Positions 18,110-51,592 are shown, counted from the first letter of the stretch. The stretch: DNA of 64,000 nt from Desulfobacteraceae bacterium (GCA_016783065.1 JADHXI010000001.1:23610-87609); one strand, 5' to 3'. A program made the numbers and translations. Notes: generated by a model not told the origin, from the letters alone.

Positions 18110-19084
18110 TCAATTGCTGGCATAGACTCCCCTCATGATATCTGAGGGATCCGGGTCGTGACACTCATTTTCGCAATAGCGGATGGACTCCTCGATTTCA
18201 TCCGCCACCTGCTTTTCCACGTCCAAACAGCCGTGCTCCGTGAGAATTCCTTCATCGATCAGTTCGTTCTTAAACCTTACAATGGGATCACTTTTCTCCC
18301 CTTCGAGTCTTTCCCCATCCGTCCGATAGATATCCGCATCGCTGATGGAATGGCCCGTCCACCTGTGGACCATACACTCTATGAGGGAGGGGCCTTCCCC
18401 ATTTCTGGTCCTTTCAATTGCCTTTTCGGTCACCTCATAAACGGCGCGTACATCATTTCCATCCACGGTGACACCCGGTATTCCATATGCCTGGGCGCGA
18501 TCCGACAGGGATTGAATTCGGGTGGATTTCTTGGCTGAGACAGACATTGCATAGCCATTGTTTACAAGCTGAAAGATAACAGGCAAGTTCATCACGGCTG
18601 CCATGTTGAGGCCTTCGTGGAAGTCACCTCTATTTGAGGCGCCATCTCCAAAAAAGCATTCCACCACAGCTCCATTTCCGTCCCTATCCAGGGCAAGTCC
18701 AACACCTGCAGCCAGGGGAATCGCAGACCCGATAATTCCGGGACCAGGAATAATGCCCTTTGAAAGATCTCCATACATATGAGACCCTGTGGGTGCTCTT
18801 CCCCCTTCAATGCCCTCCTTCTTTGCGTAATACCCCGCCATCAGATCTTTAAGGCCCATCCCTTTGATCAATTCGGGGAGTTTCCCCCGGTGAATGAGGG
18901 TGATACAATCCTTCTCCTGTAAACCGTAAGCGGCCCCCACATTGGCTGCTTCTTGTCCGATGCCGGGATGATGGTGCCCGCGCAGTCTGCTCTCTCTGAA
19001 AAGAACCGTTATCTTTTCCTCGAGCCTCCTGCCCAACACCATCCAGTAAAGCATTTTCTGTAAATCATTGTTCGAGAGTTCCAT
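18110..19084 (-). CDS. TPP-dependent dehydrogenase E1 alpha subunit (set 1, divergent subtype)
   Basis: TPP motif GDGASNRGDFHEGLNMAAVMNLPVIFQLVNN. It lacks the THRGHGH / CKGKGGSMH blocks shared by sets 2 and 3. Confidence 0.85.
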   Translation of the reverse strand: MELSNNDLQKMLYWMVLGRRLEEKITVLFRESRLRGHHHPGIGQEAANVGAAYGLQEKDCITLIHRGKLPELIKGMGLKDLMAGYYAKKEGIEGGRAPTGSHMYGDLSKGIIPGPGIIGSAIPLAAGVGLALDRDGNGAVVECFFGDGASNRGDFHEGLNMAAVMNLPVIFQLVNNGYAMSVSAKKSTRIQSLSDRAQAYGIPGVTVDGNDVRAVYEVTEKAIERTRNGEGPSLIECMVHRWTGHSISDADIYRTDGERLEGEKSDPIVRFKNELIDEGILTEHGCLDVEKQVADEIEESIRYCENECHDPDPSDIMRGVYASN

Positions 19085-19254
19085 CCCATTTCCTCCAGAA
19101 AACCATCATGTTCATTGTGCTACAGAAATCCCGCCCCATTGAACTCAGATGAGTGTCGCCATGTCCCTTTATAAATAATTCCAGGTCATGAAGGCAGGAC
19201 CATGAATTACATTTTACTCCATCTCATATGGTATATTAATACTTGAAAAGCCCC

Positions 19255-20505
19255 TCAACGCATGCTTACCATGAGCCTGTTTAGATCTTCCAGGTGAGCC
19301 TTCACTTCTCTCATAAATCGGGCACCAGGTCCTCCATTGACCACCCTGTGATCAAAGGAGCATACGATGATCATTTTCTTTCTAATTGCTATTGTCCCAT
19401 CAATCACAGAGGGTACCTCCCGTACAGCCCCTAACGACATAATCGTGGTCTGTGGCTGAAGAATAATGGGAGTGCCATACATGATACCATAAACACCCGC
19501 ATTTGTAATGGTGATAGTCCCTCCGGTTATGTCTTTCGGTTCAAGTTTGTCATTCCTTGCCTTTGATATTATTTTACGTACCTCTTCCCCTAATTGCAGT
19601 ATCGATTTATCCTTGACGTCCTTGACCACAGGAACAAGCAGTTTCTCACCCAGATCCACCGCAACGCCTATGTTCAGGGCATCTTGAACAACAAACCCGT
19701 CTTCATAGCAATATGCATTAACCTCAGGTATCAAGTCGATACCGACCTTTATCGCTTTCATTATAAACGGAAGGTATGTAAGCCGTGGTTGATCTTCCCG
19801 GGACTTGCTGGCCGCAATCATTTGGGATAAATCGGTCACATCGATCTCAACCGCATTATTATAATGGGGAACCTCCCTGACACTCATAGTCATTCTGTCT
19901 GCAATGACTTTTCGCCATCCAACAAACTTGACCTTTTCTCTCCCCTCTGTCTTCCGGGAATCTTTGGCTTTGACACCCGTACCGGGTGTATCCGGTTCAA
20001 CCCGAGATTTCTTCTCAATGAATTTAAGGACATCGGCCTTTACGATTCTTCCTTTTGGTCCGCTGCCTGAGGATATTTCAGCCAGATCTACGCCGTGAGC
20101 CCGCGCAATGGCCTTCGCCGTGGGCGAAACCCTCCTTTTCTTTGCAGGTCTGCCAGCAGAAGGGCCTTCCTCTGCCTTTCCCTCTTGACTCGTGGCAGTT
20201 ACATCAAACTCCCTGGCTTGTCCTGGCCCTTTGGCTCCTCTTATTTCCTCGGGAATAACTTCCCCGTCTTCTCCAATGACACCCAGAACGCCGCCAACGG
20301 GCGCGGTTTCCCCTTCCTGATAAAAAATCCCTCTTAAGACCCCGGAACCTTCGGCAGGGATCTCCACATTTATCTTGTCAGTTTCAACAGTTACGACGGC
20401 TTCACCCAGCTGAATCTCTTCTTCAAGGGACTTGAGCCATTTGGTCACAACGGCCTCCGTTATGTTAAACCCCGCTTCCGGCACCTTTATCTCATACATG
20501 ATCAT
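19255..20505 (-). CDS. dihydrolipoamide acyltransferase E2 (set 1)
   Basis: Lipoyl motif VETDKINVEI, one E3-binding domain (VSPTAKAIARAHGVDL...GPKGRI), catalytic SFDHRVVNGG. ATGA overlap with E1 beta. Confidence 0.9.
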   Translation of the reverse strand: MIMYEIKVPEAGFNITEAVVTKWLKSLEEEIQLGEAVVTVETDKINVEIPAEGSGVLRGIFYQEGETAPVGGVLGVIGEDGEVIPEEIRGAKGPGQAREFDVTATSQEGKAEEGPSAGRPAKKRRVSPTAKAIARAHGVDLAEISSGSGPKGRIVKADVLKFIEKKSRVEPDTPGTGVKAKDSRKTEGREKVKFVGWRKVIADRMTMSVREVPHYNNAVEIDVTDLSQMIAASKSREDQPRLTYLPFIMKAIKVGIDLIPEVNAYCYEDGFVVQDALNIGVAVDLGEKLLVPVVKDVKDKSILQLGEEVRKIISKARNDKLEPKDITGGTITITNAGVYGIMYGTPIILQPQTTIMSLGAVREVPSVIDGTIAIRKKMIIVCSFDHRVVNGGPGARFMREVKAHLEDLNRLMVSMR

Positions 20506-21503
20506 TCTCCTGCCGAAAACGTGAGGATTTCTCTGGCTGCCTTCACGATCTTGTCCGCATTGGGAAGGTAGAATTGCTCCATCTCAGGAGAGGAGGGAAT
20601 CGGGCAAAACAAGGCCCCCACGCGCTTGACAGGACCGTCTAGGAAATCTATCCCCTTGTCCGCCAACAAGGCAGCAATTTCTCCGCCAAATCCGCCGGTC
20701 GTCGGCGCTTCATGTACAATTACCGCTCCCCCTGTTTTCTCAACGGAGTTCAAAATGATCTCCTCATCCAGCGGCAAAATGGTCCTGGGGTCCACCACTT
20801 CGGCACTGATGCCCTCTTTCTCCAAGATCTTGGCTGCCTCAAGGGCTTGCTGGACCATTGCGCCCGTGGCGATGATGGAAATATCTTCTCCCTCCCGTTT
20901 CACGTCGCCCCGGCCGATGGGGGTCAGATATTCCTCTTCAGGGACCGGGCCCTTGAGCCTCTTATAAAGGAACTTATGTTCCATGAACAGCACCGGGTCA
21001 TTGTCCCTTATGGCCGACTTGAGCAGCCCCTTTGCATCCGCCGGTGTTGAAGGCATCACGACTTTCATACCCGGGATATGGGCAAACCATGCTTCCAGAC
21101 TCTGGGAATGGTGCAGTCCTGCTCCAACCCCCGCGCCATAGGCGGTCCGATAAACGATGGGGACATCAGCATGCCCTCCCAGAACCCACCTCATTTTGGA
21201 TGTGATGTTGACCATATGGTCAGCGGTTAGGGGAAGAAAATCGCCGAACATGATTTCTGCAATAGGTCGGTACCCCATCAGGGCAGCCCCACCAGCACAT
21301 CCCGCTATGGCAGACTCAGAAAGAGGGGTGTCAATCACCCGTTTCTCACCAAATTTTTCCAGAAGACCTCGGGTAGCGCCAAACACACCGCCCCCGCCAT
21401 AACCAATTGCAATGTCTTCACCCATGATGAAGACCTTCTCATCACGTTCCATTTCCTCGATCAGTGCCTCGTTAATGGCTTCAATGTATGTTATCTCTCT
21501 CAT
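20502..21503 (-). CDS. TPP-dependent dehydrogenase E1 beta subunit (set 1)
   Basis: ALIEEMERDEKVFIMGEDI, HSQSLEAWFAHIPGMKVVMPSTP, C-terminal transketolase domain. Confidence 0.9.
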   Translation of the reverse strand: MREITYIEAINEALIEEMERDEKVFIMGEDIAIGYGGGGVFGATRGLLEKFGEKRVIDTPLSESAIAGCAGGAALMGYRPIAEIMFGDFLPLTADHMVNITSKMRWVLGGHADVPIVYRTAYGAGVGAGLHHSQSLEAWFAHIPGMKVVMPSTPADAKGLLKSAIRDNDPVLFMEHKFLYKRLKGPVPEEEYLTPIGRGDVKREGEDISIIATGAMVQQALEAAKILEKEGISAEVVDPRTILPLDEEIILNSVEKTGGAVIVHEAPTTGGFGGEIAALLADKGIDFLDGPVKRVGALFCPIPSSPEMEQFYLPNADKIVKAAREILTFSAGE

Positions 21504-21555: not shown

Positions 21556-22410
21556 TTAGTAGAGTTTGGGCACCGCGGCTTCAAAAATTTTCTTAGAATG
21601 CTCATCTGCCCGCCTCTTGTTTCTTACAGCCATCATGGTATAAAGCACATCAATGACAGAGAGGTGCTCGATCCTTGAGGCCAGAACATCGTTGCGGAAT
21701 CGGGTGTCCTTGGATCTCGCAATCAGTTTAATATCCACCATTTTTGCAAAGTATGAACGCGGATTGTTGGTCACCCCGATGGTTGTGGCTCCCAGGTTTT
21801 TCCCGATTTTGATTACATCGATGAGATCACGGGTGTCGCCTGAGCGGGAAAAACCCAGAAGAACGTCTTTAGGGGTCATCAATGAAGCCTTAATGGCTTG
21901 AAGATGGACATCGATCACATATTGTGCGTCTATGCCAAAAAAGGCAAGCTTTTCCGCGGCGAATATGGCTGTTGACCGTGAAATCGACAGAGCCATCGCG
22001 AGCACCTTTCGAGCATTTTTCAGGGCCGTGAATGCTTTTTCCAGCTCGTCATAATCCAATATCTTCAGCGTATCATCGAGACTTTCGATGGTGATGCTAA
22101 AGACCTTGCTCGCGATGGCCTTGGCATCGTCTGTTTTCTTGATCGGCTCGTAGGGTTTGGTGATATGGGTGACGCTCTGGCGGGCAAAGGCCAGCTTGAA
22201 ATCACGAAATCCGCCATAATCAAGGGTGCGGCATAATTTAAAGATCGTGGTCTCACTCACACCGCTTAGCGAGGCCACATCAGAAATGGTCATGTCCAGA
22301 ACACGTTCCCCGTTGGCCAGGATGAACTCCGCGGCCTTCCTTTCAGCCGTATTCAGGGAGCGACAAACGGATTCTAGCTTTATGAGACAATCGGGCCTTG
22401 CCATTGCCAT
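21556..22410 (-). CDS. RpiR/MurR-family transcriptional regulator (HTH_6 + SIS)
   Basis: N-terminal LNTAERKAAEFILAN...ISDVASLSGVSETTIFKLCRTLDYGGFRDFK followed by a SIS-like domain. Confidence 0.85.
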   Translation of the reverse strand: MAMARPDCLIKLESVCRSLNTAERKAAEFILANGERVLDMTISDVASLSGVSETTIFKLCRTLDYGGFRDFKLAFARQSVTHITKPYEPIKKTDDAKAIASKVFSITIESLDDTLKILDYDELEKAFTALKNARKVLAMALSISRSTAIFAAEKLAFFGIDAQYVIDVHLQAIKASLMTPKDVLLGFSRSGDTRDLIDVIKIGKNLGATTIGVTNNPRSYFAKMVDIKLIARSKDTRFRNDVLASRIEHLSVIDVLYTMMAVRNKRRADEHSKKIFEAAVPKLY

Positions 22411-22466: not shown

Positions 22467-22616
22467 TTAGTGTCTGAACGAAAACTGTCTTTTTCGCCCA
22501 TATCTGCGTCAGACTCAAATTTTAATCCTCGAAATACTCAATGTATTCCTGCGGTTAAAATCTTCGTCTTCCTTGATCTGAACGAAAAATCCTAATTTTC
22601 GTTCGGACACTATTTA
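22467..22616. mobile_element. ~150-bp MITE-like element, copy B
   Basis: Ends TTAGTGTCTGAACGAAAAC and TTTTCGTTCGGACACTATTTA match copy A (18/19 and 21/21). The interior is unrelated. A subterminal hairpin TCTGAACGAAAAAT/AATTTTCGTTCGGA is present. Confidence 0.5.
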
Positions 22617-23455: not shown

Positions 23456-24328
23456 ATGAAACGGAATGCTTCGATGCCGGTTGGTATCTATGAGAAGGCG
23501 TTGCCCTCTGGCCTGTCCTGGGAGGGCCGTTTAGAGATGGCCGCGAGAGCGGGATATGACTATGTTGAGATTTCCATAGATGAGAGTGAATCCCGTTTGG
23601 CCCGTCTGGACTGGTCGGCCGGACAACGTTCCCAATTGCGACGGGCCATTGCCAATACCAACATCCCGATCATGAGCATGTGTCTCAGCGCACATCGCAA
23701 ATATCCTCTGGGAAGCGCATCTCAGAAAACTCGTGAGCGAGGACTGGATATTCTTGTAAAAGCCATTGAATTTGCATCGGAAATTGGATTGAGAATCATT
23801 CAGGTCAATGGATATGACGCCTTTTATGAACCGAGCAATGAACAAACTCAAGCCAGATTTCTGGAAGGATTGCATCAAGGCATTCAATGGGCAAGTGCGA
23901 AAGGAGTCATGCTGGGTCTTGAGAATGTGGACACGCCCTTCGTTGAATCGGTAGAAAAGGCTTTGCATGTTGTCAATGAGCTTAACTCACCTTGGTTTCA
24001 CCTGTATCCGGATATGGGGAACCTCTTGGCGGCAGGGTATTCTCCCCCCAAGGAGCTACGATTGGCAAAGAACCATTTGATTTCGCTCCATGTCAAGGAT
24101 GCCAAACACGGGATCGTCCGGGGTGTGCCTTTTGAGAAAGGTGATGTTCCATTTCAGGAAACGTTTCAGGCGCTGGCCGAAATCGGATATGGGGGTCCCC
24201 TTACCGTGGAAATGTGGGCGGATCTTAGGGGGGACGCGGACCCGCTTTCTTCGGTGATGGATGCCCATAAATTCATCAAAAGCCTTGTTGATGTTCATTT
24301 GGATGCTCACGGCGATAGACCTTGCTGA
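23456..24328 (+). CDS. L-ribulose-5-phosphate / L-xylulose-5-phosphate 3-epimerase (UlaE/SgbU family)
   Basis: AGGAGG SD. PVGIYEKALPSGLSW...ISIDESESRLARLDWS...SMCLSAHRKYPLGS...WFHLYPDMGNL aligns with my recollection of E. coli UlaE. Confidence 0.85.
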   Translation: MKRNASMPVGIYEKALPSGLSWEGRLEMAARAGYDYVEISIDESESRLARLDWSAGQRSQLRRAIANTNIPIMSMCLSAHRKYPLGSASQKTRERGLDILVKAIEFASEIGLRIIQVNGYDAFYEPSNEQTQARFLEGLHQGIQWASAKGVMLGLENVDTPFVESVEKALHVVNELNSPWFHLYPDMGNLLAAGYSPPKELRLAKNHLISLHVKDAKHGIVRGVPFEKGDVPFQETFQALAEIGYGGPLTVEMWADLRGDADPLSSVMDAHKFIKSLVDVHLDAHGDRPC

Positions 24329-24381
24329 GCACGCCATGGCATCGCTTCTTTACTTTGAATATGACATAAAGGAGGGGAAAC

Positions 24382-25518
24382 ATGATGAAAATGGATGAAT
24401 TGACATCCAGAGAACGTATCAGGTTGGCCCTGAATCATCAAGAGACAGACCGCATTCCTGTGGATCTGGGGGGGTCTGATTGCACAACGATTACCGTGAA
24501 GGCCTATGACAATTTGAAAGAACATCTGGGCTTCAAAGGCGATACCAGGGTCTTCTCACGGCGTTTCCAGACGGTCCTCGTGGCTGAGGAACTGCAGCGT
24601 ATGCTCCATTGTGACGTTCGCGTCATTCCCTACAGGCCTTCTATCAGGGATCGGGCCAGATCCACCGCTGACATCACCTATACGGACGAATGGGGATTGG
24701 ATTACCAGAGTGACGGTCTTTATTTCAATATTATCAATTCCCCCCTGAAAAATGCGACTCTCGATGATCTGGAAGGTTATGACTGGCCAGACCCTTCTGA
24801 CCCCGAGCGGGTCAAAGGGGTGGCCGAAGAGGCCAGGTATTGGCATGATCACTCAACTTATGCCCTTTTGGGGCCAGGCATCGCATGCAGCTTGTTTGAG
24901 CAGTGCTGGTATCTGCGGGGTTTTGAGCAGTTCTTTCTTGATCTGGTGGTGGATAAGGCGTTCGCTCATGCCTTGCTCAGAAAGGTCCTTGATATTCGAA
25001 AGGTCATGTATGGCCGTTTTCTTGAAGAAGCAGGGAAATACCTCGATGTCATTTATGTGGCCGATGATATTGCCATGCAGTCAGGTCCAATGATGTCCAT
25101 TGAGATGTTCAGAGAAATGATCAAACCCTATTACAAGGAATATTTTACCTTTCTAAAAGAAAAAACCGAGGCGAAATTGTTATATCATTGCTGCGGGGGA
25201 GTTGAGCCTTTTCTTGAGGATCTCATTGAGGCAGGAATTGACATTATCAACCCCGTACAGACGACCGCAGGTGGCATGGACCCCGCCAATTTGAAAGAGA
25301 AATATGGCGACAGAATTGTATTTTGGGGCGGTATTGATACCCAGCGTATCCTCCCCAAAGGAACCCCCGGGGAGGTTCAAGAGGAAACCCAGAAGATGCT
25401 CCGTATTATGGGAAGCGGCGGGGGCTATGTCCTCGCCGCTGTTCATAATGTTCAGCCCGACACCCCGCCCGAGAACATCATGGCCATGCTGGATACGGCT
25501 TTTCAATATCGGAGGTAG
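24382..25518 (+). CDS. uroporphyrinogen decarboxylase (URO-D) family protein, function unclear
   Basis: AAGGAGGGG SD. RIPVDLGG, VADDIAMQSGPMMS and LYHCCGG blocks are typical of URO-D/MtaA-like TIM barrels. Confidence 0.75.
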   Translation: MMKMDELTSRERIRLALNHQETDRIPVDLGGSDCTTITVKAYDNLKEHLGFKGDTRVFSRRFQTVLVAEELQRMLHCDVRVIPYRPSIRDRARSTADITYTDEWGLDYQSDGLYFNIINSPLKNATLDDLEGYDWPDPSDPERVKGVAEEARYWHDHSTYALLGPGIACSLFEQCWYLRGFEQFFLDLVVDKAFAHALLRKVLDIRKVMYGRFLEEAGKYLDVIYVADDIAMQSGPMMSIEMFREMIKPYYKEYFTFLKEKTEAKLLYHCCGGVEPFLEDLIEAGIDIINPVQTTAGGMDPANLKEKYGDRIVFWGGIDTQRILPKGTPGEVQEETQKMLRIMGSGGGYVLAAVHNVQPDTPPENIMAMLDTAFQYRR

Positions 25519-25664
25519 GCGGCGTTCTTTGTCCCATCCGAAGAGGCGGCAACGAAATATGTCTTAGCGACGAAGATGCCCCCTGATCCGGTTTTCTTAC
25601 TTCATGACGATGCCTTGGGATTTTGTGTCTCTTTCTCTCCCCAAACGCTGTTGGGGTTGAGACC

Positions 25665-26699
25665 TCAAGGGGTCAGCAGGATCTTGATCGCCTCCGAACT
25701 CCTGAGAAGCGCGAACGCCTCTTTCCATTCCGTAAGCGGCAGGACTTTGGTAATGAGGGGATCAACATTGATCTTCTGGTTGGAGAGGATTGAGAGCGCC
25801 CTTGTCCAGCTCGTCCAGTTGGAACTGGCGCTGAAGTTCACATCCGCCGCCTTCGCCAGGGCTGCATCCCAAGGGAAGGGAACGGATTTTTGGCCTGTAA
25901 TCCCCAAGGCGCAGACCCTTCCATTGATTCGAACAAGGTCAAAGATCTGTTCGATGGCCGGGGCGGCGCCGCTTGCCTCAACCACCAGATCGGCACCCAG
26001 GCCGTGGGTCCACTGGTTTACCTTCTCTACGATGTCTTCCCTCTCAACGTTAAGCGCGTGGTCTATGCCCATCTTTCGAGCAGCCTGCAATCTGATTTTC
26101 TCATCCGCATCCGTGCCTGTAATGACCACGGTGCCTGCTCCTTCAGCCTTGGCTACCGCAGCTGCAAGCAGGCCAATGGGGCCGCAGCCCAAAACCACGA
26201 CGAAATCCTCCGGTTCGACCCTGCACTTCTCACCCAGCCCCTTCATGACGATAGCGATCGGTTCGGTGAGCGCCGCGTGTTCATTAGACACGTTGTCCGG
26301 TACGATATGGAGGGATGAGGCCGGGAGGGTGAGGTAAGGCACAAAGCAGCCATGAATTCTGTAGCCGATCGCCCTTTTTTTCGTGCATAATTCCACTTCG
26401 CCTCGCTGGCAATTTCGACAGGTGCCGCAACCGCCCTTGTGGGCTTCCGCAACGATTCGATCTCCTACTTTGAAGTCGGTCACATTTTTTCCTGTTTCAG
26501 CGATTTCCCCGAAGAACTCATGTCCAAGGATCACGGGTGGATTGCAGTTGAACCGGCCTTCTTCAATGTGCAGGTCGGTGCCGCATATTCCAGCCATCTT
26601 GATTTGAATAAGTACCTCGTTTGCTTCTACTTTCGGCTTTTCCACCTCAATGATATCAAGAAATCCCTCCCCGCTATGCGTCTTGGCCAATCCTTTCAT
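25665..26699 (-). CDS. Zn-dependent medium-chain alcohol/polyol dehydrogenase (butanediol/sorbitol-DH-like)
   Basis: CGTDLH, GHEFFGEI, structural-Zn CGTCRNCQRGEVELC and GCGPIGLL. Start moved to ATG 26699 (MKGLAKT) with a GGGAGG SD. Confidence 0.85.
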   Translation of the reverse strand: MKGLAKTHSGEGFLDIIEVEKPKVEANEVLIQIKMAGICGTDLHIEEGRFNCNPPVILGHEFFGEIAETGKNVTDFKVGDRIVAEAHKGGCGTCRNCQRGEVELCTKKRAIGYRIHGCFVPYLTLPASSLHIVPDNVSNEHAALTEPIAIVMKGLGEKCRVEPEDFVVVLGCGPIGLLAAAVAKAEGAGTVVITGTDADEKIRLQAARKMGIDHALNVEREDIVEKVNQWTHGLGADLVVEASGAAPAIEQIFDLVRINGRVCALGITGQKSVPFPWDAALAKAADVNFSASSNWTSWTRALSILSNQKINVDPLITKVLPLTEWKEAFALLRSSEAIKILLTP

Positions 26700-27102
26700 A
26701 TTATTACCTCCCAGTATTTTCGGATTTAAGCGTCTTAATTTTAATCCGTGTATCCCCAAAAGACAAGGCACCTTTGTAAGCCCCCAGTCTTTTTCAGGAA
26801 GATCAGGTTAGCTTTGTTTTCAATTCAGGCAATTCCTTGATCTTGGAATCTTTTGAATTCTCACAAATTTTCCAGTTATACGCGACAACAATGAATACCA
26901 TTTTGTGACCTCCTTGACTGTCACTCATCACAAGGATCTTCTTGAAGTTCCCCTCCGTCGGTTTGAAGCCTTTTCAGAACCCCGCTTGCAAGGTACCACC
27001 GCTTACCGAACATGCAAGGAAGTTTGGGGAGCAGTCGATAAGAACTCGCTTTTTCGGGGATGGAAAGGAGGTGAATACCACAGAATCATGGATATCTCCT
27101 GG

Positions 27103-35151: not shown

Positions 35152-35169
35152 CAACAAGGGAATGGCTTT

Positions 35170-37784: not shown

Positions 37785-37795
37785 AAATAAACCCT

Positions 37796-39358: not shown

Positions 39359-39392
39359 TTTCTTGCACCTCCCTTTGATCGGTTTGTGTTAC

Positions 39393-40955: not shown

Positions 40956-41034
40956 TGTCTCTGCCTCCTCACGGGTCTTGAGCCTCACCCACTCCTTTTC
41001 TTCTGCAACGGGTCATTTTGTAGGTTCTCAATAA

Positions 41035-41279: not shown

Positions 41280-41289
41280 AAAAAATGCC

Positions 41290-42405: not shown

Positions 42406-42463
42406 AACGAACCTCCTAAGACATAAATTCACATATATCCGGCTGAATCATAAATTTCGTTTC

Positions 42464-43363: not shown

Positions 43364-44351
43364 TGTTAGACACCTCCTTCTTCTTTTTGAAGACTACATT
43401 CACGAAAAACAGTCCCATAAAAATGGTAAACAGGAGCAGTATAAAACCGATTGCCGCCCCCCGTCCGAACTCAAAATAGCGGAAGGAAACATTGTAAAGG
43501 TAAAAGGGAAGGATCTTGGTGGTGTCGGCCGGTCCGCCTTTTGTGAGCACATAAATGAGATCGATATATCTGACATTGTCCATGAAGCGTACCACAAGGG
43601 CAATGAGCAATACGGATTTGATGTTGGGCAGCGTCACTTCCAGGAATGTTCGAACCGGTCCTGCACCGTCAACCCTGGCGGCCTCCAACTGGTCCTGGGG
43701 TACCGCCTTGAGTCCTGCCAGGACAATCAGGATGATCAAGGGAGTCCACTCCCAGACATCTGCCGCTACCACGGCCATAAACGCAGTGGACGGAAAAAAT
43801 GAGAACAGCCATGGTTTGGCATTTGCCAGGATGGTTTCGCCTGACATCAAACCCGAAGATTTGAGCAGCCAATAACCCCAGCCAAAGGAGACATTATACA
43901 AAAAGCGGAACAGATAACCCACGATAATAGGGGCCACCATCATGGGCATGATAAAGATGATTATGAAGAAATTCTCCCATTTGACGTTGTTTATTAAAAG
44001 CGCCACACTTGTCCCGACAAGCACTTCAATGGACAGGCAGAGGAGGAAGTACCAGAGAAGCAGCTTGACGCCGTTTATAAACGGCTCATCATCAAGAAGA
44101 CGCGTATAGTTGTACAGGCCGACCCAGATATCGCTCTCCCCGGGATTCATGGCGGTCTCTTTGAAGCTCATGACTATCATCCAGATAAAGGGATAGATGG
44201 TGATGGCGGCAAGTACGATAATGGTCGGCAGCATGATCCAGAGATGGAAGGGGAGCATCCCCTTTATCCTGTCAAACAAGCGGGAAAAAGCATTTTCACT
44301 TTGCAGGGGTGATACATTCTGGCTCATTGTCCCATCTTTCAAGTGGGCCAT
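43356..44351 (-). CDS. ABC transporter permease
   Basis: EAA-loop EAARVDGAGPVRTFLEVTLPN. Multi-TM profile. Confidence 0.85.
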   Translation of the reverse strand: MAHLKDGTMSQNVSPLQSENAFSRLFDRIKGMLPFHLWIMLPTIIVLAAITIYPFIWMIVMSFKETAMNPGESDIWVGLYNYTRLLDDEPFINGVKLLLWYFLLCLSIEVLVGTSVALLINNVKWENFFIIIFIMPMMVAPIIVGYLFRFLYNVSFGWGYWLLKSSGLMSGETILANAKPWLFSFFPSTAFMAVVAADVWEWTPLIILIVLAGLKAVPQDQLEAARVDGAGPVRTFLEVTLPNIKSVLLIALVVRFMDNVRYIDLIYVLTKGGPADTTKILPFYLYNVSFRYFEFGRGAAIGFILLLFTIFMGLFFVNVVFKKKKEVSNSG

Positions 44352-44451
44352 AACGTTTCTCTCATTTTATTTATTTATCATTTACCCAAAGCCAAAAAAA
44401 GCTGGGCCGGGGCCTGGCATCTCTCCCCGTCCCAGCTCAAGAAGCCTGGCT

Positions 44452-45987
44452 CTACACACGGAAAAGCCTGTCCGTTTTCTTCTTTATCTCCAGACACGCC
44501 TCTTTTGGTGACTTGAGGCCGGCGACGCATTTCTGGATTTCTGAGGTCTGGATCTGGATATATTCGTTGAATTTGGGAACCTTGGGCCCCACGACGGTGT
44601 CTGGTTTCCAGATCCCTTTCAAGATGGGGCCGTAGGTCAAGGCATTGGGCATCAGGGGAACTTTGTCCACCATTACGCCCTTGTCCATCTCAACAGGCTT
44701 GATCTTTTTCATGGGAGCCGTCGCACGGACAAAGGCCTTTTTCACATCCGGCATCTCAAATACCGATTTTCGGGTCGGGGTGCCGCCCACGTCTTTCAGC
44801 ACCATGTACTGGGTATCGTGAGAAGTGGACCAGAGGGCGAAAAGATAGGCTGCCTTCTGCAGTTCCGGTTTGGCCCAGTGGTTGATGGCGATACCGCCGA
44901 TGCCAAAATTTGTACCGTTAACCGCCTTCCCGTTCCCGACAATCCAGGAAGGATCTCCCTTGGGACACAGGTCATAGACAGTACGTCCTCCGGCGGCCTT
45001 TGACTGCTTGGGGTCTTCCACCACGGCCGCAAACTCGCCGTACTGGGGCTGCATGGCCGCCAGACCGGTGATATAGGCTGTGTTGGCGCCAGACCAGTCG
45101 TTTGTAAGGGAGTCAGGGTGAGCATATTTCATGAGTTCCTTATAATTACCCATTGTCATAATGGACTGCTCATCCCCCCACTTGCAGGGTCCGGGATTTA
45201 CGGCGCCAAAATAGTCGTCAAAATCCCATTCCAGCCACATGCCGTTGGCGTAGGAGACCCTCTGGTAATCAAGTTGGCCGCCCCAGCCCTCTCTGCCCTG
45301 CAGGGCAATTCCGTATTTCACGTCCGGGAACTTCGCCTTCTTGAAGAATTTACAGATTTCCAATACCTCCTTCCAGGTGGTCTTATCGGTGTAAACAAGG
45401 GGTTTCCCGGTCTCTGCCTCGAAATTGGGAGAGTACTTCTCAAACAGGTCCTTACGGTACATCATGACCGCCACTGCGTTGTCGTAAGGATAGGCAGCGA
45501 TTTTGGGATCGTCATAGAAACGCCCGGTTATATCCAGAAAGCGGTGTAACCAGACGTCACTCCCTGTTCCATCCGGGACCTTGGGCAGGGTCGGATCCTT
45601 CTCAAATTTACGCAGGTCTTCGGCATGTTTGTAAAAGGGAGCGCCGATCGGCTTGTCCTGGGAGTAGTAACAGGCATAGGCGCCTTTTCTACCCCTCACA
45701 TCAATGCCCACCTTTTCCGCGACGATATCCAGATGCTCTTCGATAATCTCGATGTCTATACCCGTGAGTTCCAGAAACGGCTTGATCTTTGACTTGATCG
45801 CCGCTGTTGGAGGTGTATCCTCCGACATAAACACAATCTTTGAGCCGGCAAACTGTTTCCATTTCTTGTCGTCTGATGCGTGGGCAAGTTGCGTTAAACC
45901 CAACGGCGATTTAACGATATGCCCGCCTACCAGAACCAAACCTCCGAGACCGATTTTCTTAAGTGCCTCGCGTCGAGTTACGTCCAT
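44452..45987 (-). CDS. ABC transporter substrate-binding protein with Tat-type signal
   Basis: AAGGAGGG SD. N-terminus MDVTRREALKKIGLGGLVLVGG...AHA has a twin-Arg motif. 511 aa, CUT1-type SBP. Confidence 0.8.
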   Translation of the reverse strand: MDVTRREALKKIGLGGLVLVGGHIVKSPLGLTQLAHASDDKKWKQFAGSKIVFMSEDTPPTAAIKSKIKPFLELTGIDIEIIEEHLDIVAEKVGIDVRGRKGAYACYYSQDKPIGAPFYKHAEDLRKFEKDPTLPKVPDGTGSDVWLHRFLDITGRFYDDPKIAAYPYDNAVAVMMYRKDLFEKYSPNFEAETGKPLVYTDKTTWKEVLEICKFFKKAKFPDVKYGIALQGREGWGGQLDYQRVSYANGMWLEWDFDDYFGAVNPGPCKWGDEQSIMTMGNYKELMKYAHPDSLTNDWSGANTAYITGLAAMQPQYGEFAAVVEDPKQSKAAGGRTVYDLCPKGDPSWIVGNGKAVNGTNFGIGGIAINHWAKPELQKAAYLFALWSTSHDTQYMVLKDVGGTPTRKSVFEMPDVKKAFVRATAPMKKIKPVEMDKGVMVDKVPLMPNALTYGPILKGIWKPDTVVGPKVPKFNEYIQIQTSEIQKCVAGLKSPKEACLEIKKKTDRLFRV

Positions 45988-46401
45988 CGCATACCCTCCT
46001 TTTCTAAGTGTTAAAGGTTTAAGAATGTTAAACAGACTCGCCCCAGCTCTAGGCCGGGGCCCCGCCCTCCCTCAAAATCCAAAGACCGCTCATTTCGGAT
46101 TTTGTTGACCATTATGATCAAAATTTCTAGAATGTAGCAGTATTATTATGTTATTAGATTGTCAAGTGATAATTTTTTCCCGAAACACCAAAATCCGCCA
46201 TTGTCCACAGAAAGGCCGTGAGACCCATGGGCGGCGTCAATTTTCTATTCAAATCCTTGGACTTCAGACCTCAAAGGGTATATAAGGCAGAGGTTCCGAG
46301 TCTCGTTTGAACTGATTTGATGAGACACATGCTTTAACTGGCGGCGGTGCCACCTATGGAATGGCACAACACTTTAACAACCTGATTACGGAGAGCGAAC
46401 G

Positions 46402-46836
46402 ATGATAAAAGATTTTCTTCATGTTGGATTAGGTGTAAAGGATCTTGAGAAATCTGTAAAGTTTTACACCGAAGTGATGGGAATGGAAGAGGAATATCGC
46501 ACCCACAACGAAGGTGAGAAGATAAGCCAGATTGTCGGTGTAAAAGATGTAGACATGGACGTCTGTGTCGTCAGGAAAAACAACGTGAGAATCGAGTTAT
46601 TGGATTATAAGAATGATGACCTAAAAAAACATAACAACCCTCTTGGACAGGATGAACCCGGCCTCACGCATTTGGCCTTCCTGGTCGACGATGTGGACAG
46701 GGAATTCGAGCGGATAAAGGCTCTGGGTTTTAAGTTTAATGCGCCGCCAATGGTTGCAAGAGAAAATGGTCCAAAAATCACCTACTTTGAGGGCCCGGAC
46801 AACGTTATCATTGAGATTTTTGAAAAGGTGAGTTAG
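46402..46836 (+). CDS. VOC/glyoxalase-family protein
   Basis: 144 aa. LHVGLGVKDLEKSVKFY...GLTHLAF fits the paired beta-alpha-beta-beta-beta metal-binding pattern. Confidence 0.7.
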   Translation: MIKDFLHVGLGVKDLEKSVKFYTEVMGMEEEYRTHNEGEKISQIVGVKDVDMDVCVVRKNNVRIELLDYKNDDLKKHNNPLGQDEPGLTHLAFLVDDVDREFERIKALGFKFNAPPMVARENGPKITYFEGPDNVIIEIFEKVS

Positions 46837-46893
46837 ACGCCCAAATCCCTCTTTGGCTTATCCTTGAGGAGAGGGTAATGGTTCTGGCACCTG

Positions 46894-47622
46894 TTACTCA
46901 ATGATACCTTCAAATGCCAGGTCATATTTGTCGCTTCGATAAAGAGACTCCTCACATTCGATTGCCTTCCCATTTTCGAGATAGGTCACCCCTTTTATGA
47001 GAAAAACGAGTGAGTCATCTTTAAGCCCGAGCAGGGAAGCGGAACCGCCCGAAATCTTGGCAATTCTCAAGTTTTGAGAATGCCTGTACGGCTTGTACCC
47101 GTATATATGCTCAAACACCTTCCAAAGCGAAGAAGTAAGTTCCTGGTTTTGTATCCCGGGGCAGAGATCAATGCGGATATACCTGGTTTCGAGCATCATG
47201 GGGGTATCATTGGCCAAACGCAACCGGTTAAGCCTGACGATTTTTGTCCCCTTTTTTAGGCCCAGCCTGTCCCTTGCGAAAGCATTTGCCGGAACCACTT
47301 TTTTACTCAAGACCTTTGTTGAAGGGGTCAGGCCCATTTCTGTCATGTTTTGGGTAAACCCCAGAACTTTACGCAGGTCTCTCTTGACCTTTCCCATTCG
47401 CACGAAGGTGCCTTTGCCCGCCTTCCTTTCGAGAAAATTTTCATGAACCAGGTCGTTCAGGGCGCGGCGAATGGTGGTGGATGAAATGTCATATCGTTCA
47501 CTGAATTCGCGCTCTGAAGGAAGAAGATCTCCTTCCTTGAGGTCTCCCCTCAGTATCTTTTGCTTGATATCTTCTTTTAGCTGATAATAAAGGGGGATCT
47601 TTGACTGCTGGTCAATAATCAT
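46894..47622 (-). CDS. GntR-family regulator, HutC subfamily (UTRA effector domain)
   Basis: PLYYQLKEDIKQKI...LPSEREFSERYDISSTTIRRALNDL winged HTH. Start set to ATG 47622 with a GAGAGGTG SD. Confidence 0.85.
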   Translation of the reverse strand: MIIDQQSKIPLYYQLKEDIKQKILRGDLKEGDLLPSEREFSERYDISSTTIRRALNDLVHENFLERKAGKGTFVRMGKVKRDLRKVLGFTQNMTEMGLTPSTKVLSKKVVPANAFARDRLGLKKGTKIVRLNRLRLANDTPMMLETRYIRIDLCPGIQNQELTSSLWKVFEHIYGYKPYRHSQNLRIAKISGGSASLLGLKDDSLVFLIKGVTYLENGKAIECEESLYRSDKYDLAFEGIIE

Positions 47623-47682
47623 TGATATCACCTCTCTCGCCAGCCCGGGCCATGAGATGGTATTGATCAGACCCTTTATTTA

Positions 47683-47797
47683 GGTCCAAAAACCCGGTCC
47701 TCCCTCCGGGCCGTAGGCCCTATGGGCCGGAGGCCAGCACTCCAATACTCCAACACTCCCGGAATCTGAGATCTGGTTTTTGGTCCCCTTTTAGGGG
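47683..47797. repeat. REP-like structured intergenic element with tandem heptamers
   Basis: Outer stem GGTCCAAAAACC / GGTTTTTGGTCC. Core CTCCCTCCGGGCCGTAGGCCCTATGGGCCGGAG is related to 28455-28489. ACTCCAA x2.5 at 47738-47760. Terminal hairpin CCCCT-TTT-AGGGG. Confidence 0.5.
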
Positions 47798-48169
47798 GCA
47801 GATCAAAGTCACGTCCTCCGGGCGTGGATTCTTTACTTGGCGAGGATATATTAACTGTTCATTGGGTTTGCGTAATATTACTATATTACGGTATTGTCAA
47901 GCCAAAACTGGCGATCACAGGAAATCTGGGCCTGGCAACATATAATCCTGCCAGTTCTATCAATGCTGAAGATACTGCTAAACGACCCGTATCGTTGATT
48001 TAAAAGGGAGCATGATTTCTGAAGAGCTTTTTTTCTTGACCAATAAAATAACATTGTAATATTGTACTAAAGATACTGTTTTGACAAGAATTCATTTCCA
48101 GCCTCTCCCGCTAAATGAATCTCTTAACCGTAGGTAGGCCCGAACCAACATCAGTGAGGAGGAAAGAAT

Positions 48170-49168
48170 ATGAGTAAGAAGTCACCGCCAAAAAGTGCCG
48201 CAAAAAGCAAAACTTCTTCGCGAGGTGTGACCGAAAAGATTCTATTGCAGATGTACCGAAGCGTCTATGCGACACGTCAATTTGAGCTAAAATGTATGGA
48301 CCTCTATCGCCAGGGTCTCGTCCGAGGGTACCTTCACCCCTATCTCGGCGAGGAAGCCATCGCAGCCGGTGCCTGTGCGGCCATAGGACACGACGATTTT
48401 ATCGTTAGTACGCACCGCGGTCATGGCCACTGCATCTCCAAGGGTGCCGATCTGAAGCTGATGGTGGCTGAAATTATGGGAAGAGCCACTGGATACTGTA
48501 AGGGCCGGGGAGGCTCCATGCATATTTTCAGCAAAGAGAATCACAATCTTGGGGCCAACGGCATCGTTGGCGCAGGGATTCCCATCGCTACGGGCGCTGC
48601 CATGGGGATCAAGGTCAGGAAGGAAAAACGGGTTGTTTTGGTCTTTTTTAGTGACGGTGCCGCCAACCAGGGGGTGTTCGGCGAATCCATGAACTTTGCA
48701 GCAGCCTTTGAATTGCCGGTCATTTTCATGCTTGAAAACAACCATTATGCTGTCTCAACCCCGGTTGAGTGCTCCTTCGGGAACTGTGATCTGGCGTGCA
48801 AAGGCCCTGCCTTCGGGATGCCGGGTATCTGTATTGATGGAAATGACGCGGTCGAAGTATATCTTACCACAAAGAGTGCGGTTGAAAGGGCTCTCAATGG
48901 GGAAGGGCCGACGCTGATTGAAGCCAAAACCTACCGTCATGGTGGTCATCACCTAAATGATCCTGGGGATTATATGGACCAGAAAGTCCTGGCAGAATGG
49001 AAAGCTAGAGATCCGCTTGATATTCTCAGGGGCAAGATCAGAGGCAAAAAAAAGGTAAAAGAAGTGGAAGACCAAGCGGAATTGGAACTCTCAGAGGCGA
49101 TCGAATTTGCCAAGAACAGCCCTCAACCATCGGTTGATGAGTTTCTGACAAGTATACCCAATTTTTAG
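48170..49168 (+). CDS. acetoin-dehydrogenase-type E1 alpha subunit (set 3)
   Basis: GAGGAGG SD. YLHPYLGEEAIAAG, STHRGHGHCISKG, YCKGRGGSMH. The TPP motif reads SDGAANQ...ENN (Ser in place of the first Gly). Confidence 0.85.
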   Translation: MSKKSPPKSAAKSKTSSRGVTEKILLQMYRSVYATRQFELKCMDLYRQGLVRGYLHPYLGEEAIAAGACAAIGHDDFIVSTHRGHGHCISKGADLKLMVAEIMGRATGYCKGRGGSMHIFSKENHNLGANGIVGAGIPIATGAAMGIKVRKEKRVVLVFFSDGAANQGVFGESMNFAAAFELPVIFMLENNHYAVSTPVECSFGNCDLACKGPAFGMPGICIDGNDAVEVYLTTKSAVERALNGEGPTLIEAKTYRHGGHHLNDPGDYMDQKVLAEWKARDPLDILRGKIRGKKKVKEVEDQAELELSEAIEFAKNSPQPSVDEFLTSIPNF

Positions 49169-49194: not shown

Positions 49195-50166
49195 ATGGCT
49201 GAGATGATGTATCGGGAGGCTTTGAATCGGGCCCTTTTTGAAGAAATGAGAAAGGACCCGTTGGTTTTTGTTTTGGGAGAAAATATCGGCGAGCGTGGAG
49301 GATCTTATAAGGTCACGGAAGGGTTGATAAAAGAATTCGGTGCCGAGCGTGTCATAGACACGCCCCTGGCCGAAGCAACATTTACCGGCGCAGCGGTGGG
49401 GGCGGCTCTTGCCGGTACACGACCTGTTGTGGATATCCTGTTTGTGGATTTTACCACAGTTCCCATGGACGCAATCGTCAATCAGGCCGCCAAATATGAA
49501 TTCATGTCCGGTGGTCAGGGACAGGTCCCTATGGTTTTGAGGACACAGGGAGGGGCAGGAAATAGTCTTGCAGCGCAACACTCACAGAGCCTTGAAGCCC
49601 TGTTTTACCATATTCCGGGTCTAAAGCTCGTCATGCCCTCTTCACCCTACGATGCCTATGGCCTTCTGGTATCGGCCATACGCGACGACCAACCAACCAT
49701 ATTCATAGAGCACAAGTTGTTATACATGACCAAGGGGGAAGTCCCGGAAGAAGAATATGTGGTCCCCCTTGGAGAGGCTGACGTCAAAAAAGAGGGCTCA
49801 GATGTCACTCTTTTGACCTATTCCTATATGACATTGAAATGCCTTGAAGCTGCTGAGCTTCTGGAGAAAGAAGGCATCAGTGTCGAGGTGGTCGATTTGA
49901 GAACACTGAAACCCCTGGATGAAGAAACCATATTGGCTTCGGCAAGGAAGACGGGCCGGGTTATTATCGTCCACGAGGCGTGCAAGAGGGGCGGGATCGG
50001 TGGAGACATTGCCGCCATGATCATGGAGGAGGCATACGACGATTTGGACGGTCCGGTCATGCGCGTTTGCGGTTTGGACACGCCCATCCCATACAACCTT
50101 GAACTGGAAAAGGTGTGTATTCCCACGACAGAGGATATTGTAGAAGCCATTATCAAGATTACTTGA
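49195..50166 (+). CDS. E1 beta subunit (set 3)
   Basis: AGGAG SD. HSQSLEALFYHIPGLKLVMPSSP. LEAAELLEKEGISVEVVDLRTLKPLD. Confidence 0.9.
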   Translation: MAEMMYREALNRALFEEMRKDPLVFVLGENIGERGGSYKVTEGLIKEFGAERVIDTPLAEATFTGAAVGAALAGTRPVVDILFVDFTTVPMDAIVNQAAKYEFMSGGQGQVPMVLRTQGGAGNSLAAQHSQSLEALFYHIPGLKLVMPSSPYDAYGLLVSAIRDDQPTIFIEHKLLYMTKGEVPEEEYVVPLGEADVKKEGSDVTLLTYSYMTLKCLEAAELLEKEGISVEVVDLRTLKPLDEETILASARKTGRVIIVHEACKRGGIGGDIAAMIMEEAYDDLDGPVMRVCGLDTPIPYNLELEKVCIPTTEDIVEAIIKIT

Positions 50167-50224
50167 TCCGGCGGGTTCTAATATTTTTGACCGCAATTTA
50201 TCTTTTTGAGGATGAGTGAATATT

Positions 50225-51592
50225 ATGTCAACGAAGATCATAATGCCCCAGGCCGGGCAGGATATAACGGAAGGAAGGGTTGTAAAGTGGCTAAAGGCTG
50301 AAGGAGACACCGTCAAACAGGGTGAACCGATCTGCGAAGTGGAGACGGAAAAAGTCGTCTTCGAGGTTGAATCACCGGCAGACGGGGTCCTCTTGAAGAT
50401 CATTGTTCCTGACGGGAAAAAGACCGAGATATTTGCGACCATCGGCGTGGTGGGCGAGCCGGGGGAAGCCATTGATATGACCGAATTTCTCTCAGATGAT
50501 AGAAAGGAAGAAAAAGAGGTCGATGTCGCTGATATTCGGAAGCGTCTGACTCAAAAAGAAACGGGTGATACTGCAAAAATAAAGGTGTCAGGAAGGGCAA
50601 GAAAGCTGGCGGAAAAGAAAGGGGTTGACCTTACCACAATTGAGGGCACCGGGCCCGGTGGCCGCATCGTGGAAAAAGATGTCGAGCGAGCGGCAGCTGA
50701 GGCGGCGGACGTCAAGATAAGAGTGTCTCCCGTGGCCAGAAAGATGGCTGAGGAAAATGGTATCGACCTTGGCATCATGAAAGGCTCAGGACCTGGCGGC
50801 CGTATCATCAAGGAAGATGTACAGAGAGCCATAGAAGAAAAAGCATCTGAAAAAAAGATAACGGAGAAACCCGGCGCAGCAGCACTAAAAGAGGTGAAAG
50901 AGGTTGTGCCCATCAGAGGTGTCAGGCAGGTGATCTTTGAACGGATGCACCAGAGCCTGCAACAGTCCGCACAACTTACCGTCACCATGGAGGTTGATGC
51001 GGCGGAGCTGGTCCGTTTCCGGAGAGTGCTGGGCGAGGGCCCTGAAAATGCGGGCATACGCATTTCCTACAATGCGATCCTGGTGAAGATCTTGGCCCGG
51101 GTCCTCGAGGAGCACCCTCACCTCAATAGCAGTGTTATTGGCGACGAGATCTGGATCTGGGAATCGGTGAATCTTGGGGTGGCCGTGGATGTTGAAGATG
51201 GCTTGGTGGTTCCGGTTGTTCGTGATGCGAACAAAAAAGATCTGATCGCCATACAAGGAGAAATGGACGAACTGGCTGAAAAGGCGAAATCTAAAAAATT
51301 GATTCCGGATGATCTAAGAGGAGGGACCTTTACGCTGACCAATATGGGTTTTCTGGATATCGAGGCCTTTACTCCCATCCTTAACCCGCCCGAGACCGGA
51401 ATCCTGGGCGTGGGAAAGATCGTGGAGAAGCCGGTGGTGGAGAACGGAGATATCAAGGTAGGCCAGAGGATGACGCTGAGCCTGACCTTTGATCACCGCA
51501 TTGTTGATGGAGCGGATGGAGGCCGTTTCCTCAAGAGGGTAAAGGCATATATCGAAGAACCCTATCTTCTTCTGGCAGCCGGAAATAAATAG
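50225..51592 (+). CDS. dihydrolipoamide acyltransferase E2 (set 3) with two E3-binding domains
   Basis: Lipoyl VETEKVVFEV. Two PSBD copies (VSGRARKLAEKKGVDL..GPGGRI and VSPVARKMAEENGIDL..GPGGRI). Catalytic TFDHRIVDGA. ATG 50225 is preferred over GTG 50216 on SD spacing. Confidence 0.9.
   Translation: MSTKIIMPQAGQDITEGRVVKWLKAEGDTVKQGEPICEVETEKVVFEVESPADGVLLKIIVPDGKKTEIFATIGVVGEPGEAIDMTEFLSDDRKEEKEVDVADIRKRLTQKETGDTAKIKVSGRARKLAEKKGVDLTTIEGTGPGGRIVEKDVERAAAEAADVKIRVSPVARKMAEENGIDLGIMKGSGPGGRIIKEDVQRAIEEKASEKKITEKPGAAALKEVKEVVPIRGVRQVIFERMHQSLQQSAQLTVTMEVDAAELVRFRRVLGEGPENAGIRISYNAILVKILARVLEEHPHLNSSVIGDEIWIWESVNLGVAVDVEDGLVVPVVRDANKKDLIAIQGEMDELAEKAKSKKLIPDDLRGGTFTLTNMGFLDIEAFTPILNPPETGILGVGKIVEKPVVENGDIKVGQRMTLSLTFDHRIVDGADGGRFLKRVKAYIEEPYLLLAAGNK

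Follow-up and report, generated by a model that had tools for sequence, protein, structure and literature searches.

The DNA analyzed here, a 64,000-nucleotide (nt) stretch from Desulfobacteraceae bacterium (GCA_016783065.1 JADHXI010000001.1:23610-87609; "the window"), forms a catabolic island in the genome of a marine Desulfobacteraceae-like bacterium that has not been cultured. Between positions 18110 and 51592 it encodes three lipoamide-dependent thiamine diphosphate (ThDP) E1alpha-beta/E2 sets, numbered 1 to 3 in window order, which are of three different evolutionary types. Judged by its genes and phylogeny, set 2 encodes a complex of the acetoin type. We estimate a probability of about 0.5 that sets 1 and 3 represent two lineages performing the C-C cleavage step of sugar or polyol pathways and delivering acyl-CoA. 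The gene context suggests that the compounds they cleave are most likely sugar- or polyol-derived ketols or ketose phosphates.

Pfam and NCBIfam scans of the approximately 50 open reading frames (ORFs) of the window confirmed the three complete E1alpha/E1beta/E2 sets that a preliminary description of the sequence had claimed. Set 1 is on the minus strand (E1alpha, 18110-19084; E2, 19255-20505; E1beta, 20502-21503), as is set 2 (E2, 27103-28335; an AcoX-like protein of the NAD-kinase family, 28579-29571; E1alpha, 29580-30551; E1beta, 30579-31583), and set 3 is on the plus strand (E1alpha, 48170-49168; E1beta, 49195-50166; E2, with two E3-binding domains, 50216-51592). The catalytic motifs are intact: E1alpha of all three sets carries the GDG/SDG...NN ThDP motifs, and each E2 retains the catalytic DHRxx[DN]G as well as ETDK or ETEK at its lipoyl lysine. 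The sole dihydrolipoyl dehydrogenase (E3) gene in the window (31872-33245, plus strand; Pfam; TIGR01350, 353 bits, under the cut-off of 409) encodes both the redox disulfide (CMNRGC) and the His-Glu pair (HPTLSE).

We placed the sets in a FastTree phylogeny of 113 E1alpha sequences de-replicated at 88% identity, in which AcoX-linked loci and the pyruvate dehydrogenase (PDH) of Bacteroidota and Blattabacterium served as stand-ins for characterized AcoA, PdhA, and Bkd. Set 1 falls in a clade of 13 rows (support, 100; stem, 0.7), set 3 in a clade of 22 rows (support, 100; stem, 0.45), and set 2 in an 11-row clade with AcoX-linked loci (support, 95). The Bacteroidota PDH E1alpha sequences, including that of Blattabacterium, are separate (support, 99), and in this tree, made with FastTree only, none of the three sets groups with them; set 3 branches with acetoin-type E1 instead. 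No set reaches the cut-off of a PDH E1alpha equivalog (TIGR03182, 394 bits; TIGR03181, 411 bits), the TIGR03182 scores being 270 bits for set 1, 366 bits for set 2, and 330 bits for set 3. The solved structure closest to set-3 E1alpha is that of human PDH E1alpha (E value, 1e-59).

The clades are also distinguishable at the active site. The loop past the catalytic His reads GHFEGD in acetoin-type E1alpha, a motif that set 2 carries, and GHSMSD in PDH; it reads GHH[VIL]ND in the set-3 clade (20/21) and GHS[IM]SD in the set-1 clade (13/13). Set-3-clade proteins have SDG instead of GDG (20/21) and the motif ENNHY (21/21), and they have in common with acetoin-type E1 a CKG[KR]GGSMH block and an STHRGHGHC block, the latter not found in PDH. 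Set-1-clade proteins carry RGHHHPG (12/13) and HRGK (13/13), have lost the Glu before the NN motif (13/13), and have a two-residue insertion in the GGSMH loop.

To compare gene neighborhoods, we assembled E1alpha loci (given L numbers below) from four sources: exact-protein look-ups, a species-level genome scan with set-3 E1alpha, a metagenome scan with set-1 E1alpha, and searches of same-phylum genomes with set-1 and set-2 E1alpha, which gave 40 regions. Loci with at least 8 kb of flank were counted, features within 10 kb of E1alpha were scored, and clade membership meant at least 55% identity to the window's E1alpha. An FGGY-family kinase is present in 8 of 12 set-1-clade loci and 8 of 21 set-3-clade loci, versus 2 of 26 set-2-clade loci, both from one genus, and none of 40 loci with other E1alpha. 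AcoX is present in 10 of 26 set-2-clade loci and in none of the others (set-1 clade, 0/12; set-3 clade, 0/21; other E1alpha, 0/40). Co-localization of E1 clades with FGGY kinases in other genomes, a check proposed in the preliminary description, was thus observed for the set-1 and set-3 clades.

This linkage to kinases, importers, and sugar-phosphate enzymes is clade specific and rearranged from locus to locus, with kinases joined to the two clades in at least 10 different gene arrangements. L120 has E1beta, E2, E1alpha, iron-containing alcohol dehydrogenase (Fe-ADH), FGGY kinase, short-chain dehydrogenase/reductase (SDR), and E3 genes with gaps of <100 nt; the order in L143 is FGGY, SDR, E1beta, E2, E1alpha; and in L025 the kinase gene is followed by E1alpha after an 89-nt gap. 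The partner kinases span different FGGY subfamilies, and the partner ATP-binding cassette (ABC) importers range from a GlpSTPQV-like type with DUF2160 to CUT1 importers with a 511-amino-acid (aa) binding protein, ribose-type importers, and Liv-type (branched-chain amino-acid-type) importers. Kinase linkage has outlasted many rearrangements, which speaks for a functional connection. The earlier suggestion that the sets other than set 2 have been recruited to sugar-derived ketols holds insofar as sets 1 and 3 form separate clades and only these two are embedded in importer/dehydrogenase/FGGY operons, in Desulfobacterota and in metagenome genomes of other anaerobes; it is gene context that speaks for the recruitment itself.

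The set-1 operon begins with a gene for an RpiR-family regulator with a SIS (sugar-phosphate binding) domain (21556-22410, minus strand; Pfam HTH_6 and SIS), followed by E1beta, E2, E1alpha, and, directly 3' of the set, an SDR (17200-17925, minus strand; Pfam adh_short, 204 bits; no NCBIfam equivalog cut-off reached). The remaining genes (10739-17088, minus strand) encode an importer consisting of two ATPases, two permeases, a DUF2160 protein (12637-12933), and a 574-aa binding protein (10739-12463). Compared by layout only, this importer matches the GlpSTPQV glycerol importer (PMC11223650). The RpiR gene holds the same position in L004, the beta-E2-alpha order recurs in every set-1-clade member examined, and SDR and Zn-dependent medium-chain dehydrogenase (Zn-MDR) genes each occur in 7 of 12 set-1-clade loci. 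Converging on set 1 is a plus-strand operon whose first gene encodes an LsrK-like FGGY kinase (5935-7500), followed at 7528-10645 by genes for a 2-hydroxyacid dehydrogenase (7528-8628), a C_GCAxxG protein, a DUF2148 protein, and a class II aldolase-family protein. Orthologues of this kinase occupy the same position in L004 and L118, and the block that follows it is syntenic in L004, L115, and L118. Because the best match to set 1 in 400 same-phylum genomes was only 49% identical, its context was taken from metagenome contigs; none of six sampled same-family genomes matched set-1 E1alpha at an E value of <=1e-60.

Between sets 1 and 2 the plus strand carries a 3-epimerase-like gene and a URO-D/MtaA-like gene (together 23456-25518; Pfam URO-D), the former resembling L-ribulose-5-phosphate 3-epimerase (23456-24328; NF009688, 327 bits versus a cut-off of 317), and the minus strand carries a Zn-MDR gene (25665-26771; Pfam ADH_N and ADH_zinc_N). 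In L117, orthologues of the URO-D-like and Zn-MDR genes immediately adjoin a set-1-type E1beta gene, and because of this adjacency the two window genes (24382-26771) may belong with set 1 rather than with set 2. A perfect 21-nt direct repeat (18071-18091 and 22596-22616) brackets the set-1 cassette, including the RpiR gene.

Set 3 is divergently oriented from an operon (37044-47631, minus strand; Pfam) that encodes a GntR/UTRA regulator (46894-47631), a 511-aa CUT1 binding protein (44452-45987), two permeases, a MalK-like ATPase, two FGGY kinases (39393-40988 and 37796-39358), and a CN-hydrolase. This operon is syntenic with set-3-type E1 in L007, L012, and L017 and on two other contigs of the source genome, C12 and C47. 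On contig C12 and in L009, L012, and L017, the genes 3' of E2 encode a HAD-IIA phosphatase, a class II ketose-bisphosphate aldolase (TIGR00167, 260 bits versus a cut-off of 216, the only subfamily cut-off reached), and a HAD-IA phosphatase; L017 additionally has citrate synthase and L009 transketolase. Neighbors in the 21 set-3-clade loci include GntR/UTRA regulators (11 loci), CUT1 permeases (10 loci), class II ketose-bisphosphate aldolase (6 loci), and HAD phosphatases (6 loci).

Directly downstream of E3 lies a gene for a divergent transaldolase/fructose-6-phosphate aldolase (FSA)-family protein (33282-34541, plus strand; Pfam TAL_FSA), here called transaldolase like (TAL like). The E3/TAL-like pair is conserved in the window, in the set-3-type locus L009, and in L018 and L198, and L018 has the contiguous order E3, TAL like, E1alpha, E1beta, E2. 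On the basis of the order in L018 and the pair in L009, the E3 and TAL-like genes of the window probably belong with set 3, not with set 2. The next genes encode a flavin mononucleotide (FMN) reductase-family protein and an FGGY kinase (together 34579-36720, plus strand); the kinase (35170-36720; Pfam, NCBIfam) is ribulokinase like but below the model cut-off, and its orthologues directly adjoin set-3-type E1alpha in L021 and L025. A TAL-like gene occurs in 4 of 21 set-3 loci and in three loci with fused E1alpha-beta that the count missed. Relatives of the protein are ~396 aa long. It retains the Schiff-base Lys (NVMIKVPGT) but misses all NCBIfam transaldolase and FSA cut-offs, and in the conserved VDPR block it has Gln where its best PDB match, the transaldolase 3r5e, has Glu; we take this position to be Glu96 of TalB, where FSA presumably has Gln (Gln59).

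We considered the TAL-like protein as a strict partner of E1 and rejected that assignment, as some of its relatives have Liv-type importers and UPF0261 genes for neighbors and no E1 in view. In L195 to L199, relatives 75 to 80% identical to it accompany Liv-type importers, UPF0261 (Tm-1-like) proteins, GlpA-like flavoproteins, and DHDPS-family genes, all of them families that the right flank of the window also contains. In L030, L031, and L035, all from Desulfobacterales metagenome genomes, E1alpha and E1beta are apparently fused in a ~630-aa ORF 3' of the TAL-like gene. Upstream in the Pfam-annotated L029 are genes for a double class II aldolase-family protein and an alpha/beta hydrolase, and ORFs of similar size are present in L030 and L035. 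At L025:8293-18187, an FGGY kinase gene and set-3-type E1alpha and E1beta genes are followed directly by genes for a binding protein, permeases, and ATPases, with no E2 in view.

Set 2 is transcribed in the order E1beta, E1alpha, AcoX, E2, Zn-MDR and divergently faces the E3, TAL-like, FMN reductase, and FGGY genes. AcoX is typical of acetoin clusters (PMC3543383), and we assign set 2 to the acetoin type by its AcoX gene and its position in the clade with AcoX-linked loci. The same two features bear out the earlier view of it as an ordinary acetoin/butanediol set. Many acetoin-type E1/E2/E3 clusters of the phylum (L075, L086, L089 to L091, and L102 to L104) stand beside Liv-type importers, some of which have a UPF0261-fused ATPase.

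A pathway can be sketched from the genes around sets 1 and 3. A binding-protein-dependent ABC importer would bring in a polyol or sugar, an SDR or Zn-dependent dehydrogenase would oxidize it to a ketone, and one or two FGGY kinases would phosphorylate the ketone. At E1, ThDP would add to the carbonyl and an aldehyde or aldose phosphate would be split off; the remaining two-carbon unit (acetyl or glycolyl) would be oxidized onto the lipoyl arm of E2 and leave as acyl-CoA, and the single E3 would reoxidize the arm. The RpiR (SIS) and GntR/UTRA regulators would tie expression to a sugar intermediate. We infer the substrates, their phosphorylated or deoxy state, and the order of the steps. At somewhat under even odds, we tentatively regard the set-1 and set-3 types as oxidative ketolases that would convert kinase-activated keto-polyols or (deoxy)ketose phosphates to acyl-CoA and an aldose phosphate. 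The methyl-ketols and 1-deoxy-ketoses put forward earlier, such as a 1-deoxy-pentulose-5-phosphate that would yield acetyl-CoA and glyceraldehyde-3-phosphate, are one option among several. The gene context is alike compatible with deoxy-ketoses, ordinary ketose phosphates, small diols, and sugar-derived 2-oxoacids, including pyruvate.

The proposed chemistry has parallels in known systems. In transketolase and phosphoketolase, ThDP attacks C2 of a ketose phosphate and an aldose phosphate is released, the same chemistry that we propose for sets 1 and 3; those enzymes pass the two-carbon unit to an acceptor aldose or to phosphate, whereas here it would go to lipoamide and then become acyl-CoA. 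In the Lsr pathway for autoinducer-2, the kinase LsrK, the isomerase LsrG, and the thiolase LsrF lead to dihydroxyacetone phosphate and acetyl-CoA. Common to that pathway and our proposal are import, an FGGY kinase, and a phosphorylated ketone that gives up an acetyl unit to CoA, and two window kinases exceed the cut-off of the LsrK model NF008187 (582 bits for 2427-3992 and 584 bits for 5935-7500, versus 528). LsrF and LsrG family members and an LsrACDB-type importer were all missing from the Pfam results for the main ORFs of the window, and cleavage here would be carried out by a ThDP/lipoyl complex rather than a thiolase-like aldolase-fold enzyme.

The acetoin dehydrogenase system (AcoA/AcoB/AcoC/AcoL plus AcoX) of Pelobacter carbinolicus, Clostridium magnum, and Bacillus subtilis has the same heterotetramer-type E1 with a ThDP motif, lipoyl E2 with a 2-oxoacid_dh core, and E3, and it cleaves a ketol rather than a 2-oxoacid, as proposed here. 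Unlike that system, the set-1 and set-3 clades are without AcoX and have other active-site motifs, and set 1 has the beta-E2-alpha order. They are linked instead to FGGY kinases, sugar ABC importers, ketose-bisphosphate aldolase, and HAD phosphatases, and their regulators are of the RpiR or GntR/UTRA type; no Sigma54_activat domain, and hence no sigma-54 AcoR-type activator, was seen among the ~50 Pfam-scanned ORFs of the window. A precedent for sugar chemistry in this fold comes from AviB1/AviB2 and Pau11/Pau12, PDH-like E1alpha/beta pairs of branched-sugar biosynthesis that act as ThDP proteins on keto-sugars (PMC4425429). These pairs are biosynthetic and add a pyruvate-derived two-carbon unit, and that paper ascribes no E2/E3 role to them, whereas the setting here is catabolic with full E2 and E3 genes. 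Our literature searches found no paper describing acetoin- or PDH-type complexes in sugar operons or tied to sugar kinases.

Several points weigh against assigning sets 1 and 3 to sugar or polyol pathways. Neighbor labels in the survey were transferred by phmmer homology from the window's Pfam-annotated proteins and a few extras rather than assigned by full Pfam scans, and since the loci come from related genomes and three differently sampled collections, the counts overstate independence. Some set-3 loci have no kinase in view (e.g., L005, L024, L027, and L028). The SDR, Zn-MDR, and E3 neighbors are also typical of 2,3-butanediol/acetoin clusters, and the transketolase, TAL-like, class II aldolase, and citrate synthase genes (L009, L017) would equally fit PDH on a sugar island. 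An alternative in line with the former is that sets 1 and 3 would lie in polyol islands as additional dehydrogenases for acetoin/2,3-butanediol, or as enzymes for a small unphosphorylated ketol such as acetol, with the kinases serving parallel polyol routes. As in butanediol clusters, set-1-type E1 has SDR (7/12) and Zn-MDR (7/12) genes at its flanks, the GlpSTPQV-like importer would suit small diols, the STHRGHGHC and CKG[KR]GGSMH blocks are common to set 3 and acetoin-type E1, and an aldehyde:ferredoxin oxidoreductase gene lies near the set-1-type locus L002. We nevertheless consider this alternative unlikely. It is weakened by the absence of AcoX (0 of 33 set-1 and set-3 loci versus 10 of 26 set-2-clade loci), by kinase genes inside the E1/E2/E3 operon in L120 and L143, by the SIS-domain RpiR regulator heading the set-1 operon, and by active-site loops that differ from the acetoin type throughout both clades; moreover, with set 2 and a set on contig C27, two acetoin-like sets are already encoded in the genome.

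Equally improbable, in our estimate, is that sets 1 and 3 are PDH or other complexes for sugar-derived 2-oxoacids, converting pyruvate to acetyl-CoA with NAD and carried along with horizontally acquired sugar islands. The structural match of set-3 E1alpha to human PDH, the PDH-like GHS[IM]SD loop of set 1, the 2-hydroxyacid dehydrogenase in the set-1 unit, and the citrate synthase, transketolase, and class II aldolase genes near E1 in L017 and L009 are as this explanation would predict. Against it, both sets score lower with TIGR03182 than does the acetoin-type set 2, all three being below the cut-off, and set 3 groups with acetoin-type E1 rather than Bacteroidota PDH. The genome also has 13 matches to the 2-oxoacid:ferredoxin oxidoreductase family, from which we conclude that it does not depend on PDH for pyruvate oxidation, and five paralogous complexes in 3.7 Mb, including two near-duplicates that each have a separate importer, are hard to reconcile with a single pyruvate role. 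A last explanation, that the window is a repeat-laden mosaic of accumulated, unrelated catabolic cassettes whose clustering has no functional meaning, is already disfavored and seems very improbable to us. High-copy repeats at 36.7, 41.0, and 47.7 kb, the direct repeats that bracket set 1, pseudogene remnants of E1beta and of AcoX/E2, and the lack of a set-1 E1alpha match (E value, <=1e-60) in the six sampled same-family genomes are what such a mosaic might leave. The same linkages, however, recur in dozens of other genomes without this mosaic, in many arrangements and at 60 to 80% protein identity, and 0 of 40 background E1alpha loci have an FGGY linkage.

If sets 1 and 3 do act in sugar or polyol pathways, sulfate reducers usually held to be nonsaccharolytic would have a dedicated route for polyols or unusual sugars straight into acetyl-CoA, and the 2-oxoacid/acetoin dehydrogenase superfamily would gain a new substrate class. 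Should they be oxidative ketolases, they would add to aldolases, transketolase, and phosphoketolase a further route of sugar C-C cleavage, and this route would be widespread among strict anaerobes of the Desulfobacterota and other anaerobes not yet cultured. Both clades can be recognized by motif (set 3, SDG, ENNHY, and GHH[VIL]ND; set 1, RGHHHPG and HRGK, with the beta-E2-alpha order), which could let annotation avoid the label "pyruvate/acetoin dehydrogenase" for them, and the associated binding proteins and kinases provide experimental handles on the substrate.

The window comes from C168, a contig of 103 kb in a metagenome-assembled genome, G000, of 3.69 Mb in 208 contigs (~72% complete; 3.9% contamination), and the nearest relatives of its proteins are in Desulfobacteraceae and Desulfobacterales metagenome genomes. 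Independent metagenomes from aquatic and estuary samples contain the region from 44.4 to 51.6 kb almost letter for letter; long contigs of the same runs match 31.7 to 51.6 kb with few or no differences, and contigs of one run (X6) that lack the repeat elements span the joins at 36.7, 41.0, and 47.7 kb. Based on these independent matches and bridging contigs, we conclude that the gene order is not an assembly artifact; contig breaks at repeats in the metagenome runs, taken alone, are uninformative on linkage. One metatranscriptome (X20) yielded six small contigs only, on an ATPase gene, a binding-protein gene, the repeat near 47.7 kb, and E2, too little for a claim of transcription, which we dropped.

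The other gene families named in the preliminary description (SDR, Zn-MDR, Fe-ADH, 2-hydroxyacid dehydrogenases, importers, 3-epimerase, transaldolase, and RpiR and GntR/UTRA regulators) were confirmed by Pfam and NCBIfam. The five sugar kinases that it placed among the complexes are all FGGY proteins of the window, but only three lie inside 18110-51592; the two LsrK-like ones are upstream. We ruled out glycerol kinase as their identity, since they score 125 to 234 bits with GlpK models whose cut-offs are 498 to 590. The two ABC importers of the window are CUT1 type, and PDB matches to their binding proteins are too weak to name a ligand, the best being a sorbitol-binding protein (E value, 1.8e-6). 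At the left end of the window, the LsrK-like kinase gene at 2427-3992 (plus strand; Pfam FGGY_N/C) is followed by a degenerate E1beta fragment (3999-4127, plus strand) and an Fe-ADH gene (4130-5437; Pfam). The fragment, described earlier as the fossil of a fourth E1beta, is weak but detectable: tblastn aligned it to set-3 E1beta with 42% identity over 43 aa and one in-frame stop (E value, 2.6e-7, for a target of 301 nt only).

The whole genome encodes five E1/E2 sets and ten FGGY genes, five of the latter in the window and two on contig C47, a concentration of kinases at these loci that we count in favor of a sugar or polyol role for sets 1 and 3. On contig C27, Zn-MDR and SDR genes are interspersed among those of the acetoin-like set. 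Contigs C12 (whole) and C47 (3649-8745) together carry a second full set-3 unit, which is a paralogue or else comes from a co-binned relative; its E1 proteins are 86 to 91% identical to those of the window. Its order is HAD, class II aldolase, HAD, E2, E1beta, E1alpha, facing GntR, binding protein, permease ... ATPase, FGGY, FGGY, CN-hydrolase. In the window, the HAD/aldolase/HAD genes found 3' of E2 in set-3 relatives are missing at this point, and the GC content rises from ~50% to 55 to 61% immediately past set-3 E2 (52000-64000); the window's set-3 operon may have been truncated at a recombination joint.

A high-copy palindromic repeat of ~250 bp (36747-36993) and its second copy (41026-41271), both found by repeat search, bracket the CN-hydrolase/FGGY/FGGY block, and a further element lies at about 47700-47840. 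The depth of these repeats is 50 to 100 times that of their flanks in three metagenomes, and because some X6 contigs lack them they look like mobile insertions of the MITE (miniature inverted-repeat transposable element) type. About 1.2 kb upstream of the window start, at C168:21753-22413, is a remnant of another set-2-like cassette, in which a C-terminal fragment of AcoX (94% identity over 71 aa) adjoins an N-terminal fragment of E2 (77% over 160 aa).

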